From: Candidatus Nezhaarchaeales archaeon
Lineage (GTDB): Archaea; Thermoproteota; Methanomethylicia; Nezhaarchaeales; WYZ-LMO8
NCBI GenBank assembly: GCA_038887515.1
Contig: JAWAKK010000002.1
Location: forward strand, 192,001 to 256,000
DNA: 64,000 bases
Reading direction: 5' to 3'
Shown here: positions 28,263 to 41,316 of the stretch, piece by piece
Layout: each line of letters opens with the position of its first letter
Position numbering within the stretch: the stretch's first letter is position 1
The notes under the pieces: generated by a model
Seen by the model: only the letters and a program-made list of their open reading frames with translations
Told to the model about the DNA's origin: nothing
Databases searched by the model: none
Made by a program: the position numbers and the translations under genes

Positions 28263-28792
28263 CTTAAGATCTTGACCTTTTTGCCTCTAGGGCTGGGTTC
28301 GATTTCAATCCTTCCACCCTCAAACTTGAAGTTAAATTCTACTCCATTGTAGAACCAGTCGAGAAACACGGCTACAGCTGCTACTTCGCTATGTGGTTGA
28401 TTTGTTACGGAAACGTTAAAGTCTGCTACTTCGTAGAAGTATTTAGGGACTTTAGGCCCTCCAACAAGCACCATTAGCCTTTCCTTACGTCTAATCTCCT
28501 CTATGATTTGGGGGAGGGGGATGCCGTACATGGTTAAATGTACTATGCAGAAGCCCTCTTCCTTCGCCCCCTTTATGACTTTGTTAATATCGATCCCGGT
28601 CTTCACTACAAATTCTCCGCCGAACATTCTATTTACTTGAATAACCTTCTGCTCCAACTTTTCATCTTTCCCATCAAACCATATCTCGCGGGCCCCAAAA
28701 GCTCTAGCGACAAGCGCCAAGTGCGTACTAACTCTTTTATCTCGAAGGGGTCTATGACCATACCTTACTATCACTATTTTTGGTCGGCACAT
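28259..28792 (-). CDS. trm56: tRNA (cytidine56-2'-O)-methyltransferase
   Basis: GHRPLRDKRVSTH, VHLTMYG, NQPHSEVAA. Confidence 0.95.
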   Translation of the reverse strand: MCRPKIVIVRYGHRPLRDKRVSTHLALVARAFGAREIWFDGKDEKLEQKVIQVNRMFGGEFVVKTGIDINKVIKGAKEEGFCIVHLTMYGIPLPQIIEEIRRKERLMVLVGGPKVPKYFYEVADFNVSVTNQPHSEVAAVAVFLDWFYNGVEFNFKFEGGRIEIEPSPRGKKVKILR

Positions 28793-28860
28793 CGGTTATT
28801 AATTTAATAAGCATTTTTTTAAACTTGCTAGGGGCATTATACCTGGGTGGCAGAGAATTC

Positions 28861-29388
28861 ATGGTTTCGGAGCCCTCAGAGCAATACGATAAAGAGTTGA
28901 CAAACGTACTATTGAAGCTGATTGCAGTACTTTGTGGCAAAGACGCCATCGAAGTAGTCAAAGTGTTACTTAACGAGAAGGAGATGAGTGACGAGATACT
29001 AGCCGAGAAAACGGGTATGAGACTTAACCAAGTTCGACGAATCCTCTACGACCTTCTGGACAAGCACGTCGTGACTTACCAGAGAGGGATAGATGAAGAA
29101 AGGGGTTATTACGTGTACACTTGGTCTCTGAATAGGGACGGCCTAAAGGAGATAGTGAAGGAGAGAAAGAGGCTAGTCTTAGAGAGACTGCGCGAGAGAA
29201 TTCGATACGAGGAGCAGAACATGTTCTTCGTTTGTCCCAACAGTTGTACTGGTAGGATGCCCTTTGATAAGGCTTTGGATCAACAGTTTAAATGCTTGCG
29301 TTGTGGCGCAGTACTGCAAAGCTTCGATAACACCAAGATGATTGAGAAGTTAAGGGCAAAAATAGAGGCGTTAGAGAAGGATCCTTAA
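28861..29388 (+). CDS. tfe: Transcription factor E (alpha)
   Basis: wHTH (DEILAEKTG...VRRILY.L), YVYTW, C..C...FKCLRCG. Confidence 0.92.
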   Translation: MVSEPSEQYDKELTNVLLKLIAVLCGKDAIEVVKVLLNEKEMSDEILAEKTGMRLNQVRRILYDLLDKHVVTYQRGIDEERGYYVYTWSLNRDGLKEIVKERKRLVLERLRERIRYEEQNMFFVCPNSCTGRMPFDKALDQQFKCLRCGAVLQSFDNTKMIEKLRAKIEALEKDP

Positions 29389-29486
29389 GCGTAGTTACGA
29401 TGTAGAGTTACCTCCTAGAGAGCTTAAAGGACAAGATACGTAAGTTTTATCTTACCTTAGGGGTAGAACCAATCCTTGTGGGTTTT

Positions 29487-31176
29487 ATGAAATACATTTT
29501 CATTACAGGAGGTGTTTTATCAAGCGTAGGTAAGGGGGCCGTGACTGCTTCGATAGGCAAGATGCTCCAGGTTAGAGGCTTTTCTGTAACGGCAATAAAG
29601 ATAGACCCATAGGCCTTAGGGGCCGGGTAAACATAAACGTTGATGCTGGAACAATGAACCCATAGGCTCTGAGCTGGAGGCTTAGAGCCGGGTATATATG
29701 CATGGCGAGGTCTTCGTGACGGAGGATGGCGGCGAGGTAGACCTAGATCTCGGTCACTATGAGCGTTTTCTCGATATAGACCTATCAAAGGACAACAACA
29801 TTACGACTGGACAAGTGTACATGGTGGTCATAGAGGCCGAGAGGAGGGGGAAGTACCTCGGCAAGTGCGTACAAATAATACCTCACATAACCGACGAGGT
29901 GAAGAGGAGGATAAGGTTAGTAGCTCAGAAGAGCAACGTGGACGTGACGCTCGTAGAATGTGGAGGCACAACGGGGGACATAGAGGGACTCCCCTTCCTT
30001 GAGGCTATAAGGCAAATGAGACTTGAAGAGGGCTTTTCGAACACGCTCTTTGTTCATGTAGCCTTAGTTCCAATATTGGAAGTAACTGGAGAATTTAAGA
30101 CGAAACCTCTACAACACAGCGTCCAAGAGCTTAGACGCATAGGTATACAGCCCGACATCGTAGTGGCAAGGTGTAAGCAGCCGCTAGACGATGAAGCCAA
30201 GAAGAAAATAGCGCTTTACAGCAACGTCCCTGAAGAGGCGGTGTTCACGTCTTACGATGTGGACTGCATATACGAGCTTCCAATAATACTTGATGGACAG
30301 GGAATGGGCGCTTACATATGTAAGCGGCTTACGCTAGATGGATGTAAAGCCGACTGGTCTTCGTGGAGGGAGATAGTTGAGAGGTATAGAAGTTTTAAGT
30401 ACGAAGTCGAAGTATGCATGTGCGGTAAGTACACGAAGCTAAAGGACTCTTACATAAGCATAATAGAGGCCTTAAAGCATGCGGGCGCAGCCCTTGAAAC
30501 TAAGGTTAACATGACATGGCTCGAGGCAACAACGTTCGAACAAGGAGAGGGCATACCTCGAGAGTTTCAGGATATTTTGAGTTCCTGTGATGGCATAATA
30601 GTACTGCCGGGCTTTGGGGCCCGTGGGGCAGAAGGTAAGATTAAGGTCATCAGATACGCAAGGGAAAACAAGGTACCGTTCCTGGGCATATGCTTTGGAA
30701 TGCAACTGGCAATTGTAGAGTTTGCACGAAACGTTGTAGGTCTCAAAGAAGCAAACACAACAGAACTTGATCCGTCAACGTACCACCCGGTTGTTGACCT
30801 CCTACCGGAACAGCACTACGTTAAGGAAGTAGGTGGTACTATGAGACTCGGGGCTCAGGCAACCGTGCTTGAACCCGGAACGAAAGTCTACGAGCTTTAT
30901 GGAAGGCCGATAATATTTGAAAGGCATAGGCATAGGTACGAGGTCAACCCGACCTACTGGTCTGTACTTCAAAGCCACGGTTTGGTCTTCTCCGGATATA
31001 GCATTGATAAACGGAGGGTGGAGTTCATAGAGCTCAGGGACCACCCATTCTTTGTTGCAACTCAATCGCACCCAGAGTTCAAGTCGAGGCCCAATAGACC
31101 CTCACCCATATATTACGGCTTCGTGAAGGCCTGCCTCGAGCATAGGCTTAAGAGATTATCAGCTCCGAAATGCTGA
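29487..31176 (+). CDS. pyrG: CTP synthase with two introns (exons 29487-29610, 29631-29663, 29696-31176; 545 aa spliced)
   Basis: Exon 1 [17 protein letters not shown]...KIDP; exon 2 [11 protein letters not shown]; exon 3 [12 protein letters not shown]...GICFGMQ...HPEF. Confidence 0.95.
29611..29630 (+). other. 20-nt BHB-type intron 1 in pyrG mRNA
   Basis: ACCC AU^A GGCC UUAGG GGCC GGGU AA^A; removal gives GAC CCA UAC AUA AAC (DPYIN). Confidence 0.9.
29664..29695 (+). other. 32-nt BHB-type intron 2 in pyrG mRNA
   Basis: ACCC AU^A GGCUCUGAGC UGGAG GCUUAGAGCC GGGU AU^A; removal gives AAC CCA UAU AUG CAU (NPYMH). Confidence 0.9.
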
Positions 31177-31186
31177 TGGTCAAAGG

Positions 31187-33688
31187 CTATGAACGCTTGA
31201 ACGAAGCATAAGCTTCTCGCATCGCTTCTACGAACCTCCTCGTAGCCTCTTCGGGGTTTGAAGACCTTGTTATCGCTGAGCCTACAATTATTATCTTGCA
31301 ACCACTTTTGACCAATTCTCTTATGTGCTCAAGCCTAACTCCGCCGGCTACAGCGACGGGTACCTTCACGGAATTGACTACTTCCTCAACGAGCTTTATC
31401 TTCCTAGTTACGTCCCTCTCCCTCATTTGCGTACTTATGCCCATATGCACGCATATTATATCGCATCCCAACTTCTCAACCTCCTTTGCCCTGGCGAGTG
31501 GATCCTGTACATTTATCAGGTCACACATTATCTTGACGTTGTACTTCCTAGCAGCACCTACAGCATCTTTAATAGTGTAGTCGTCGGTAGCGCCCAACAC
31601 CGTAACTACATCAGCCCCAGCTTCGGCTGCAAGCTCCACTTCGAGCCAACCCGTGTCAAAGGTTTTGAGGTCGGCTACTATAGTAGCATAAGGGAACCTC
31701 CTTCTAAACTCCTTCACTGCTTCTAGGCCAGCGGACTTTATGAGTGGGGTCCCAACCTCGATGATCTCGGCTCCTCCTCTATAGCAGGCCTCGGCTATGC
31801 TTAGCCCATCTTTCATATACCTTTCATCTATTGCTACCTGTAGCTTGGGCCCCGTGTAGAGGGGCTCGAGACCTAACTGCTGGAGCTTCTTGTCTGTGGG
31901 TACTCCGTGATAGTTCCAGCCTCTAATAGCATAATAAGAATCGATTAATCTCGTTAGGTCGACAACTTCTCCCTTGGATGCCCCCTCTCTCAACTTTTCA
32001 TTTAAGAAGCGTAGCGGCAGAGCGTCGTGGCTTCTATCGAAACCCTCTCTGGCGTTGAAGAGCCTTTCCAAGTTGTATATCCTCTCTCCTATCTTGTAGA
32101 ACTCCTCTTCGTCAACGTAGAAACCAGTTGCTGTTGTTAGTAGCCTCGCGTAATGGGTTGGCTCGTAAGCCAGCGTCGAGAATAAGGCTAGCATTGTAAA
32201 TTTGCACATTATCAACGAGTCTATTACGGCCGAGACGTCCTGCATCCTCTTGACGAGCTCTGCCTTACCCTCATAGGACAGAGGATCTATGTACTTGGGG
32301 ACGCCAAGGATCTCGCTGATCACGACGTAGGCCCTTAAGTGGCACCCTCCTCTATTAGAAGTTGCGTAAGCTAACGCCATCCCTTTAGCTCCTCGAGGAT
32401 CGTAAGCTGGTAGCTCTAGACCCTTTACGTGGGCTGCTATGTCTTCGGCGTTAAGCATCTTTGATATTCGGCTAACGCCTTCGCCCACGATTTTACCTAG
32501 ACCTCTCCTATACGCTGTATCGACTATAACCTTTAGTAAGGAGTCCGAATTGCCAAAATTGAGTTTTATGTTCACTTCGCTAAGCTTCTCTAATAGTCCC
32601 TTCTCATAACACTCCATTAAGAAGCCTACGGTGTTCCCCAGCGAAATCGTATCAAGACCCAATTTATTGCATAAGTCGTTTGCTCGAGCTATGACGTTAA
32701 TATCCGATATACCGCAATTCGGCCCTAAAGCCCATACACTTTCGTATTCTGGGCCCGAGGATATGACTTCCTTCCCATCAACAGTGTACTTCACTAAGCG
32801 GCCGCACGCTATTGGACATCCGTAACATGCCGTCCTCTTCACGAGCATTACTTCAGTTATCTTCTCTCCGCAGACTTCTTCTGCTTTATCGTAGAAGCCT
32901 CGCGTAAAGTTGTAGGAAGGAAAGACGCCTGCCCTATTCATCAGGTGCACTAGGAATGCCGTGCCGTAGCGCCCTAAGCTATCTCCGGTAATCGGATTCC
33001 CCCTTAACACGTCGAGCGTCTTCCTAACTTCTTCATTGAAAGCCTTTGGATTAGCTACTTTAACTTCGCCGGTCCCCTTAACTGCTATAGCCTTTAAATT
33101 CTTGGATCCCATGACTGCGCCTAGGCCACCCCTACCCGCGGCCCTGTGTTTATCGCTTATGATGCAAGCAATCTTTACGAGGTTTTCGCCAGCTGGACCA
33201 ATACAGCAAACCTTAACGTCCTCCAGCTTTAAATCTCTCTTTATTTCCTCTTCCGTAGCATCTGTTTCAAGACCCCAAATCTTACTTGCATCTCGTAGCT
33301 CGACTTTTCCGTCAGCAACGAATAGGTATACGGGGCTAACGCTCTTTCCTCTAACTATTATTCCATCGAAGCCAGCTTTCTTCAGCTCAGGTCCCCATGA
33401 CCCTCCGCACTGAGAGTCAAAGATTGTGCCGGTCAAAGGTGACTTCGAGGATACAGCAAATCGACCTGATGTAGGCGCCCTTGTCCCAGTCAAGGGCCCA
33501 GTCATAAACACTAGGATGTTTTCCTCATCTAGAGGGTTAGTACCTGGCCTTAACGAGTCGAAGAGGAACTTCGCCGAGTATCCTCGGCCGCCCACGTACT
33601 TCATAGCTATATCCCAGTTGAGATCTACGATGGTCACGTCGCCACTAGACAAATCTGCATCTAGTATTTTGCCTGTATAGCCGCTCAA
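31187..33688 (-). CDS. Tungsten aldehyde:ferredoxin oxidoreductase fused to C-terminal 3-hexulose-6-phosphate synthase domain
   Basis: AOR motifs KSPLTG, GRGGLGAVMGSKNLKAI, CYGCPIAC, GPEYE, RGGCH; the last ~220 aa have LQVAID, EVGTPLIK, ADLKTFDTG, VAGG. Confidence 0.9.
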   Translation of the reverse strand: MSGYTGKILDADLSSGDVTIVDLNWDIAMKYVGGRGYSAKFLFDSLRPGTNPLDEENILVFMTGPLTGTRAPTSGRFAVSSKSPLTGTIFDSQCGGSWGPELKKAGFDGIIVRGKSVSPVYLFVADGKVELRDASKIWGLETDATEEEIKRDLKLEDVKVCCIGPAGENLVKIACIISDKHRAAGRGGLGAVMGSKNLKAIAVKGTGEVKVANPKAFNEEVRKTLDVLRGNPITGDSLGRYGTAFLVHLMNRAGVFPSYNFTRGFYDKAEEVCGEKITEVMLVKRTACYGCPIACGRLVKYTVDGKEVISSGPEYESVWALGPNCGISDINVIARANDLCNKLGLDTISLGNTVGFLMECYEKGLLEKLSEVNIKLNFGNSDSLLKVIVDTAYRRGLGKIVGEGVSRISKMLNAEDIAAHVKGLELPAYDPRGAKGMALAYATSNRGGCHLRAYVVISEILGVPKYIDPLSYEGKAELVKRMQDVSAVIDSLIMCKFTMLALFSTLAYEPTHYARLLTTATGFYVDEEEFYKIGERIYNLERLFNAREGFDRSHDALPLRFLNEKLREGASKGEVVDLTRLIDSYYAIRGWNYHGVPTDKKLQQLGLEPLYTGPKLQVAIDERYMKDGLSIAEACYRGGAEIIEVGTPLIKSAGLEAVKEFRRRFPYATIVADLKTFDTGWLEVELAAEAGADVVTVLGATDDYTIKDAVGAARKYNVKIMCDLINVQDPLARAKEVEKLGCDIICVHMGISTQMRERDVTRKIKLVEEVVNSVKVPVAVAGGVRLEHIRELVKSGCKIIIVGSAITRSSNPEEATRRFVEAMREAYASFKRS

Positions 33689-35628: not shown

Positions 35629-35931
35629 GGTGCCGGGAGAGGTCGGGCAGCCTTCGGGCGCTCCGTGCGCCTGAGGAAAGTCCCCCTCCGTCGGGGAGCG
35701 CGGCGCCGTAAGGCGCCAGCCGAGAGGCTGGGGGTTAAGCCAAAGAAACGACACGCCTACCAACTTATGGCCATGATGGGCCCAAAACCTTGAGGACGTT
35801 GGTAGAAGCGTTGAAACGTGGCGACCCCCGCGCGGAATAAGGTGTGCCACGATGAGCCCCCGATGAGTGGCGTACCGCATTAGTCGGATGCTGCTTAAAC
35901 AGAAGGGGGATTACGAACCTCACCCGGCACC
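35629..35931 (+). ncRNA. rnpB: RNase P RNA
   Basis: GAGGAAAGTCCCCC and AAACAGAAGGGGGATT (P4 halves); terminal helix GGTGCCGGG/CCCGGCACC; upstream TTAAATA. Confidence 0.93.
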
Positions 35932-36000
35932 TCATCAACTGCAAGCAAAACCTCTACGAGACCTCCTATTCGAGGCGCACCTACCTCTATGTGACGTAAA

Positions 36001-36010
36001 CAATATATAG
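36001..36010 (+). promoter_or_regulatory. Putative TATA box of rRNA operon
   Basis: AAACAATATATAG ~25 nt before the GC-rich structured leader. Confidence 0.5.
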
Positions 36011-36235
36011 GTTGCAATCACTATTCCTTATGCACCACGGTGGCGGTGTCGAACGGACTGTGAGGGGCTTCTTCTGGCCCCTAGAATGAAAGTTCGACCT
36101 CCAGCCGTGGGATACTAGTGGGGATCCAAACAAACCGAGCCCATTGAAAGCTCGGATGTTTGGGTCCGACGTGGGGTTGGCGGAGCCCGGTTATCTAGGA
36201 TGACCCCGCTAGGGGTCTTGCGGCCGCTCTTCCGA

Positions 36236-37737
<1,502 letters not shown>

Positions 37738-37868
37738 TAACATCGGGGCGGGCTCCGCCGCCCCACCTCAAAGTACCTTCTTCATCAATAAGATCGTTAA
37801 TGCAGCCCAAGAAGGGCCCCTTCTTGGGTGAAGGGCGGAGCGAGTCTCGATGAGCTGTGACCGCCGTG

Positions 37869-37905
37869 CATAGGTCTATGTCCTGCCCGTAGCCCGTGGG
37901 CTCAA
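37869..37905 (+). other. 5' strand of 23S pre-rRNA processing stem with canonical BHB (pairs with 41043-41079)
   Basis: GUCCU GCCC GUA GCCCGUGGGCUCAA / UUGAGCCCGCGGGC GGGU AAA AGGAC. Confidence 0.88.
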
Positions 37906-37909
37906 TGGT

Positions 37910-41040
<3,131 letters not shown>

Positions 41041-41141
41041 TTTTGAGCCCGCGGGCGGGTAAAAGGACGTAGACCTATGCGCGGCGGACCCTTTCTTACA
41101 TTGGCAAAATTTTTAGTGTCCTTTCTATAGTCTCTCATTTT

Positions 41142-41232
41142 GGGCTCGTAGCTCAGCATGGTCAGAGCGCTCGGCTGATAAGATGTCTCAGACACCGAGA
41201 GGTCGGGGGTTCAAGTCCCCCCGAGCCCACCA
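41142..41232 (+). tRNA. tRNA-Ile(GAT) with 13-nt intron at 37/38 (41181-41193); CCA encoded
   Basis: GGGCTCG acceptor stem; CTCGG-CT GAT A[AGATGTCTCAGAC]A-CCGAG; BHB CUGA UA^A...UCAG AC^A. Confidence 0.93.
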
Positions 41233-41242
41233 CCCTTCGAGA

Positions 41243-41316
41243 GGGCCGGTAGATCAGCCTGGTGGATCGCCCGCTTCGCAAGCGGGAGGTCGCGGGTTCA
41301 AGTCCCGCCCGGTCCA
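41243..41316 (+). tRNA. tRNA-Ala(CGC)
   Basis: Cloverleaf, CCCGC TT CGC AA GCGGG anticodon arm, G3:U70 pair. Confidence 0.94.

Follow-up and report, generated by a model that had tools for sequence, protein, structure and literature searches.

Structure of the interrupted pyrG gene

How can a hot-spring archaeon make CTP synthase from a gene whose N-terminal reading frame, intact up to a conserved motif, runs into a stop codon after only 41 residues? The question is raised by a stretch of 64,000 nt from Candidatus Nezhaarchaeales archaeon (NCBI GenBank assembly GCA_038887515.1, contig JAWAKK010000002.1, positions 192,001 to 256,000 of the forward strand), referred to here as the window, which harbors pyrG at positions 29487-31176 (+) in three exons separated by two inserts of 20 nt (29611-29630) and 32 nt (29664-29695). 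In our assessment, pyrG is very probably transcribed as a pre-mRNA carrying two bulge-helix-bulge (BHB) mini-introns, which are then spliced.

The open reading frame (ORF) that starts at ATG 29487 (or GTG 29478) reads to ...KIDP and stops at TAG 29610-29612, and this N-terminal piece of 41 aa matches positions 1-40 of the Pfam domain CTP_synth_N (E 6.5e-15). A second ORF of 492 aa, starting at ATG 29698 with MHGEVFVT, covers positions 54-265 of the same domain (E 6e-91) together with GATase. The 13 profile positions absent from both ORFs (41-53) are supplied by 29631-29663 in the third reading frame, and the three Pfam segments (1-40, the 13-position gap and 54-265) coincide exactly with the three exons. 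Exon 1 (29487..29610, +) runs from Met1, through the P-loop, to the first base of Tyr42; exon 2 (29631..29663, +; 33 nt, frame f0) runs from the last two bases of Tyr42 to the first base of Tyr53, and its peptide fits the uninterrupted relatives; exon 3 (29696..31176, +) supplies the last two bases of Tyr53 and continues through MHGEVFVT to the stop, containing the ORF 29698-31176. Both inserts start within a Pro-Tyr pair, right behind the first base of the Tyr codon: the first splits the Tyr codon of the K-I-D-P-Y-I-N motif and the second splits the Pro-Tyr that follows.

When the two inserts are removed, a frame of 545 aa is predicted from Met 29487 to the stop, comparable in length to the uninterrupted CTP synthases of relatives, and its alignment with these is free of gaps across the N-terminus. 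The predicted protein carries the complete domain set of PyrG, namely CTP_synth_N (1-40 and 54-265) and a C-terminal class-I glutamine amidotransferase, with the P-loop and K-I-D-P-Y-I-N both present. The N-terminal 53 residues of CTP synthase, with the P-loop and the conserved motif, are indispensable to the enzyme. An earlier reading of the locus, made from the letters alone (the sequence-only reading), had proposed that an N-terminus beginning at 29487 had been missed by the ORF track and that its frame hits TAG 29610-29612; the CTP_synth_N match over positions 1-40 confirms the former and the ORF list the latter.

Bulge-helix-bulge anatomy of the two introns

The two inserts share one build, in which an exonic ACCC pairs with an intronic GGGU to form a helix; the 3-nt bulge AUA follows the exon strand and leads into a hairpin, and another 3-nt bulge (AAA or AUA) lies behind GGGU. 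In intron 1 (29611..29630, +), the exon strand of the central helix (ACCC, 29605..29608) pairs with the intron strand (GGGU, 29625..29628) as seen both in the fold and in an alignment of ten genomes (A1), where three of the pairs are invariant and the A-U pair occurs in 9/10 genomes. The 5′ bulge AUA (29609..29611, +) is unpaired in the minimum free energy (MFE) and centroid structures, with a predicted cut between U29610 and A29611 that restores the frame in 10/10 genomes, and the 3′ bulge AAA (29629..29631, +) has a predicted cut between A29630 and A29631, as indicated by the sequence, the fold and the cut rule across genomes. Between them lies the inner hairpin (29612..29624, +; GGCC(U)/(G)GGCC), whose second pair is G-C in 8/10 genomes and A-U in 2/10. 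The boundary of this intron, judged from sequence, frame and cross-genome comparison, can be shifted by one A (29611-29630 or 29612-29631) with no change in the product. Intron 2 (29664..29695, +) repeats the arrangement 33 nt to the 3′ side and has both its exon target ACCCAU|A and its ends (AGGC...GCCGGGUA) in common with intron 1; here ACCC 29658-61 pairs with GGGU 29690-93, the bulges are AUA 29662-64 and AUA 29694-96, and the fold gives an 11-bp hairpin at 29665-29689.

Both introns therefore present two 3-nt bulges on opposite strands with a 4-bp helix between them, and both possess an inner helix (h′), with stems of 4-5 bp in intron 1 and 10-11 bp in intron 2. Archaeal tRNA introns have this BHB layout, in which the 5′ splice site comes behind the central helix on the 5′ strand. 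The MFE and centroid structures of ViennaRNA, with each insert folded alone, recover the central helix, the bulges and the hairpin, and the inner stem of intron 1 appears as 5 bp with a 3-nt loop, compared with 4 bp and 5 nt in the drawing of the sequence-only reading. The fold of intron 2 reaches −23.6 kcal/mol (z −3.9), which none of 200 shuffles equaled. No RNA family was found by Rfam at or near the introns, even with E values up to 10.

The splicing endonuclease cuts after the second nucleotide of each bulge. Applied to the pyrG transcript, this rule removes 29611-29630 and 29664-29695, rebuilds TAC and TAT (both Tyr) and yields a single continuous frame; in both introns, and at every intron length encountered, a cut after bulge nucleotide 2 restores the frame and the motif in 10/10 genomes. 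The sequence-only reading was correct in what it observed: the 20-nt intron at 29611-29630 splits a Tyr codon, and its splicing gives D-P-Y-I-N, as the cut rule confirms throughout the ten genomes, while the ACCC(exon)/GGGU(intron) helix, the bulges, the hairpin and the one outer G-C pair that it described were all recovered in the sequence and in the fold.

A scan of the source genome for a 4-bp central helix, 3-nt bulges and an inner helix of ≥4 bp returned 40,809 BHB-like motifs over ~2.76e8 position-length combinations, which corresponds to ~1.5e-4 per place and length set in advance. Two such motifs stand in exact register, 33 nt apart, where homology demands breaks in pyrG, and this register is not due to chance.

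Conservation, covariation and selection

The nearest public relatives are Nezhaarchaeota/Nezhaarchaeales genomes of 86-88% identity. Among species-representative genomes of Nezhaarchaeales, on which the order-level counts are based, both inserts were detected at the same sites in 10/10 genomes of one family (f1, four genera) and in 0/5 genomes from the two other families of the order. In addition, 80 archaeal pyrG loci were compared, of which 72 are uninterrupted, four contain both inserts (L001-L004, all Nezhaarchaeales), one has an intron at site 1 (L009), one carries a different insert (L005) and two are cut by contig ends. In all ten f1 genomes the spliced, in-frame motif matches that of the 72 uninterrupted loci, so the alignment with PyrG of relatives that the sequence-only reading had proposed as a check came out in its favor. 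Among the 150 listed of 389 matches from a survey of the phylum, a short pyrG open frame (≤504 aa) was observed only in the ten f1 rows. A pattern scan of metagenome contigs gave 21 stretches, 17 of which are pyrG with the site-1 intron and four of which are chance matches.

Substantial variations in intron length were observed among these close relatives. Intron 1 occurs in 18 distinct forms over 28 loci, with lengths of 19, 20, 21, 22, 27, 29 or 31 nt, and within the ten f1 genomes intron 1 measures 19-27 nt and intron 2 measures 30-33 nt. Since the lengths span all three classes modulo 3, only excision yields one and the same protein. Common to all 18 of these forms are ACCC, AUA, a 3-9-bp stem, GGG(U/C/G) and A(A/G)A, with free replacement of the hairpin sequence.

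The pairing of the predicted helices is maintained as well. In alignment A1, 95.8% of 240 cells form a pair, compared with 14-46% when the partners are slid, and the central helices pair in 95-97.5% of cells over the ten genomes. Three pairs are changed on both sides, comprising one of the four inner-helix pairs in intron 1 and two of the ten in intron 2, and the observed covariation score was reached by none of 500 shuffles. At the protein level, the 53 codons of exons 1 and 2 show dN of 0-0.039 against dS of 0.5-2.2 in eight of nine comparisons with the source genome (G000), the dS of the ninth not being computable, and these values indicate that the two exons are under strong purifying selection. 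The 11 codons of exon 2 encode an identical peptide in 10/10 family genomes. The heptanucleotide ACCCAUA is invariant at 20/20 sites of the intron-bearing genomes, whereas the same codons vary in intron-less relatives; since coding exon bases form the central helix, the nucleotides at these splice sites are subject to two constraints at once, one from the protein sequence and one from the RNA structure.

Splicing enzymes and the proposed pathway

The source genome encodes two tRNA_int_endo genes (EndA paralogs) of 191 and 178 aa. The 191-aa protein is closest to the Protein Data Bank chains 3p1z_B, 3ajv_B and 2zyz_B (E 1e-46 to 1e-48), which we take to be the catalytic subunits of crenarchaeal heterotetramers, and the 178-aa protein matches the non-catalytic unit at the N-terminus of two-unit enzymes, with weak hits to models of the beta subunit as well. 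The endonuclease would accordingly be built of two different subunits, one catalytic and one structural, as judged by similarity. One RtcB gene (600 bits) was also found in the genome, which thereby holds an RNA ligase and, with the subunits assigned by similarity, an endonuclease of the type that tolerates relaxed motifs. According to one report, non-canonical introns are cut only by (alpha-beta)2 and epsilon2 enzymes (PMC5829648). Of the 46 tRNAs predicted by ARAGORN, 18 contain predicted introns (5-80 nt), and several of these introns are simple hairpins.

From the anatomy of the introns and the enzymes present, we infer cleavage and ligation as follows. In each intron, ACCC, the last four paired exon bases near the Pro-Tyr junction, would pair with the GGGU at the 3′ end of the intron to form the 4-bp central helix, the 3-nt bulge on either strand would present the splice sites, and the hairpin of the intron itself would serve as the inner helix. 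The tRNA splicing endonuclease would then cut each bulge behind its second nucleotide, RtcB would ligate the exons, and splicing would rebuild two Tyr codons and one frame of 545 aa.

A variant of this pathway is suggested by the folding of both sites together. In the MFE structure of a 121-nt segment (29590-29710), ACCC at site 1 is paired with GGGU from intron 2, and since both introns use ACCC/GGGU, such cross-pairing could lead to the removal of 29611-29695, with in-frame loss of the 33-nt exon 2. Skipping of exon 2 could thus be an alternative product, and potentially a built-in alternative-splicing switch on CTP synthesis.

Several observations weigh against splicing of the pyrG transcript by this route. 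The strict form of the motif (hBHBh′) has an outer helix (h) of ≥2 bp, which neither intron possesses: in intron 1 it is the lone pair G29604-C29632, invariant in 10/10 genomes, and in intron 2 one A-U pair found in only 6/10 genomes. With the outer helix reduced to one pair, the pyrG motif is a relaxed rather than a strict one, and we infer only from homology that the host enzyme would accept it. The fold energy of intron 1 is unremarkable (−12.4 kcal/mol, z −1.7, with nine of 200 shuffles as good), and energy by itself is weak evidence; the first pair of its central helix is mismatched in 3/18 forms. Because the aligned sequences are related to each other and one of them supplied the structure, the pairing statistics are a support and not a set of independent trials. 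A scan of the genome by structure alone gave 286 hits against 224-241 in three mononucleotide shuffles, and structure alone consequently does not discriminate. Two metatranscriptome runs from the study that includes the likely source DNA run gave no reads on 28700-31400; as only ~3% of either run was read, this says nothing about expression or splicing.

Alternative explanations

Translational recoding would leave the RNA intact, the ribosome shifting frame, reading through or hopping at C-CCA-UAG with the help of the stop and the downstream hairpin, and the insert being translated or bypassed. In the window the frame of exon 2 is indeed open throughout intron 1, and a −1 slip on CCC/CCA would reach exon 2; the stop directly behind the take-off codon, the hairpin and the short untranslated gap also recall the bypassing of phage T4 gene 60. 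However, the shift required would differ among close relatives, given the seven lengths of intron 1, and those forms of intron 1 that are divisible by 3 retain the in-frame TAG. The conserved Tyr would be missing from the product, which would have ~7 extra residues within a motif common to the 72 uninterrupted loci, and the frame of exon 3 meets a stop inside intron 2 (frame f2). A bypass of the gene 60 type was rejected on three further points, namely that no matching landing codon (CCA) lies 3′ of either insert, that the split Tyr codons are rebuilt only at the RNA level and that the length of the gap varies freely. Recoding is accordingly a highly improbable account of the locus. A greater, though still very small, likelihood attaches to the removal of the insert from the RNA by some other nuclease and ligase, or by self-cleavage, in place of tRNA endonuclease and RtcB. 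The near absence of the outer helix would suit such a route, but 20 nt is far too short for a group I or II ribozyme, Rfam placed no other RNA family at the site, and the architecture is exactly that of BHB substrates and is common to the cbf5 intron site and the short tRNA introns of the same genome.

The remaining two explanations deny that a functional interrupted gene exists. If pyrG were a pseudogene, or decaying in this lineage, the inserts would be inactivating insertions, and gene callers do report a 44-aa fragment and a 492-aa ORF without the ATP-binding N-terminus. Decay is nevertheless extremely unlikely in the face of the dN and dS values of exons 1 and 2 and the unchanging 11-codon peptide of exon 2 reported above, the precise structure kept by the inserts through compensating changes, and the status of this pyrG as the sole copy in the source genome. 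An assembly or sequencing artefact, or a minority DNA variant, has next to no probability. The window-identical DNA contig comes from a run that is probably the source of the window and hence is not independent, but the same insert site occurs with differing sequences in nine other genomes, four public records (L001-L004) and 17 contigs from many metagenome records. The sequence-only reading had staked itself on the 20 nt being present in DNA, and they are found in that contig of the likely source run, just as the 17 metagenome contigs carry the site-1 intron. We therefore retain splicing of two BHB mini-introns as the explanation of the interrupted pyrG.

Introns of the same kind in other genes

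Six further genes that would be rejoined by the same kind of intron, each in a conserved motif, were found by a scan of the source genome. The condition that splicing joins two open frames left 2352 hits, 140 of them with compact hairpins, and most of these join neighboring genes; hits were retained only if the junction rebuilt a recognizable motif and the flanks were compatible in Pfam coordinates. In three genes the two flanks align in the expected order with a single Pfam domain. These are an IF-2B-family protein with a 30-nt intron (C1:10133-10162, −; junction ...T-H-C|N-A-G-A, profile 2-114 and then 117-279), aIF5B with a 29-nt intron (C2:21722-21750, +; GTP_EFTU 4-31 and then 61-183), which has a full 6-bp outer helix, and aIF2-gamma with a 32-nt intron (C2:24144-24175, +; junction ...P-G-H-E|M-L-M, profile 4-80 and then 85-187). 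In the other three, the interrupted domain starts part-way in the downstream piece: at S5 domain position 17 for uS5 (30-nt intron, C1:3238-3267, −), at position 29 for HypD (22-nt intron, C3:12273-12294, −) and at TruB_N position 17 for Cbf5 (21-nt intron, C2:333915-333935, +), where the intron splits the Asp codon of G-G-T-L-D. With the two of pyrG, the number of coding-sequence introns in the 1.29-Mb genome would be at least eight, spread over seven genes and always within invariant motifs.

The shared ends of the pyrG introns (CCATAGGC...GCCGGG) are absent elsewhere in the genome, with both matches (2/2) being the pyrG introns themselves, which shows that the other introns are not copies of them. 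Three candidates were rejected, namely C2:44395-44424, where an ABC ATPase is followed by a separate gene, C2:226032 (window 34032), where the upstream protein has its natural end at GG (judged by eye), and C1:743780, where two separate genes are present (also by eye). A possible 20-nt intron was also noted at C2:321601-321620 (−), just before the G-T-G-K-T P-loop of an Orc1/Cdc6-like protein.

Occurrence and possible spread of pyrG introns

The introns at the two sites do not always occur together, as three metagenome contigs (L120, L122 and L124) harbor a 31-nt intron at site 1 and are uninterrupted at site 2 (...N-P-I-V-H-G-E). A Bathyarchaeia contig (L009:1522-1566), whose pyrG is only 66% identical, contains a 21-nt intron exactly at site 1, with similar ends and no intron 2. 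Six genomes from two other families of the class (L099-L104), and also L005, have an intron of this design at a third pyrG position; it measures roughly 21-27 nt and lies in the P-loop between G-K-G and V-V-A-A-S, and its central helix is GGGG/CCCC.

The target ACCCAU|A common to the introns, their shared ends and the occupation of the site in a distant class suggest, from sequence comparison, a target-specific spread, although part of the similarity of the ends is forced, because the 3′ tetranucleotide of the intron must complement the exon. The distribution, with site 1 occupied in L009, intron 1 found without intron 2 and an intron in the P-loop, would fit spread by reverse splicing. In such a process, the 3′ tetranucleotide of the intron would serve as a guide by base-pairing with a matching tetranucleotide in the exon, and reverse transcription and recombination would follow. 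The same distribution is also compatible with introns persisting at sites where an imprecise loss would be lethal. The wider proposal that BHB mini-introns are mobile, target-specific elements of archaeal protein-coding genes, with mRNA splicing routine in this lineage, is accordingly put forward as a tentative one that we consider rather unlikely to hold in full.

The source metagenome also contains a pyrG contig of another organism, uninterrupted into the M-H-G-E junction (window 29698), so that intron-less and intron-bearing pyrG genes coexist in the community.

Comparison with known systems and significance

The closest known counterpart is the pre-mRNA intron of crenarchaeal cbf5, reportedly treated by Watanabe 2002 and Yoshinari 2006. 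According to a later study, this is a short BHB-type intron that interrupts a codon within an invariant catalytic motif, is found in lineages whose endonuclease has two subunits and has been gained and lost lineage by lineage (Yokobori 2009, PMC2738675). The pyrG introns resemble it as short BHB introns in a coding sequence, and the published cbf5 site (G-G-T-L|D-P) is itself occupied by an insert in the source genome (PMC2738675). They differ from it in that the host gene is pyrG and two introns with near-identical boundaries, both predicted to be spliced, stand 33 nt apart. Nezhaarchaeales, moreover, lies outside the two orders in which the authors of that study found the cbf5 intron (PMC2738675). 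The second counterpart is a BHB intron in the 5′ untranslated region (UTR) of Haloferax volcanii HVO_1309, likewise in an mRNA processed by the splicing endonuclease; its intron lies in an untranslated leader on which no reading frame depends, and that endonuclease study names cbf5 as the only mRNA BHB intron reported besides its own 5′-UTR case (Schwarz 2020, PMC7714728).

With the BHB introns of archaeal tRNA and rRNA, the pyrG introns share the 4-bp helix with two 3-nt bulges, the presumed use of EndA and RtcB and the size range predicted for the tRNA introns of this genome. They depart from these in that the host is an mRNA without a tRNA body, coding exon bases form the central helix and the outer helix is nearly absent. 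A process that works alike is the IRE1/RtcB splicing of XBP1/HAC1, in which a protein endonuclease cuts out a small intron defined by stem-loops (26 nt in XBP1) and, in animals, RtcB performs the sealing, with a change of frame. IRE1, in contrast, is an unrelated endonuclease and is regulated by stress, whereas the splicing of pyrG would presumably be constitutive and obligatory.

In the literature searched, with subscription journals and supplements outside its scope and a prior description therefore possible, we found no Nezhaarchaeota intron and, among the papers listed, no BHB intron in pyrG and no archaeal coding-sequence BHB intron beyond that of cbf5. The pyrG introns represent a new case of a known and very sparsely documented kind, unusual for two near-identically bounded introns in one gene, for three pyrG intron positions within a single class and for a small genome that has at least eight coding-sequence introns. 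In that literature, splicing of archaeal coding sequences by tRNA endonuclease rests on cbf5 and one 5′-UTR case (PMC7714728). If the present explanation is true, an essential metabolic gene needs two such splices, and some archaea would routinely splice pre-mRNA in the course of gene expression. Gene callers would then truncate or split essential genes, distorting annotation, completeness estimates and metabolic reconstructions of uncultured Thermoproteota, and the pyrG introns would offer a tractable system for the entry and persistence of protein-dependent introns in coding genes.

Other observations in the window and genome

Immediately downstream of pyrG, window 31187-33688 (−) encodes an 833-aa fusion of a complete aldehyde:ferredoxin oxidoreductase (AFOR_N, AFOR_C) with a C-terminal barrel of the OMPdecase/HUMPS family, a pairing of domains that looks unusual. 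Five contigs of the source genome (C5-C9; 6.6-12 kb) have a G+C content of 50-63%, compared with 44-45% in C1-C4, and may be foreign to this organism. Further along the window, positions 35635-41316 contain the RNase P RNA, the 16S-23S rRNA operon, a tRNA-Ile(GAU) with a 13-nt intron and a tRNA-Ala, and the 23S match extends over 3145 nt against a model of 2987 positions, suggesting that this rRNA may contain small insertions.

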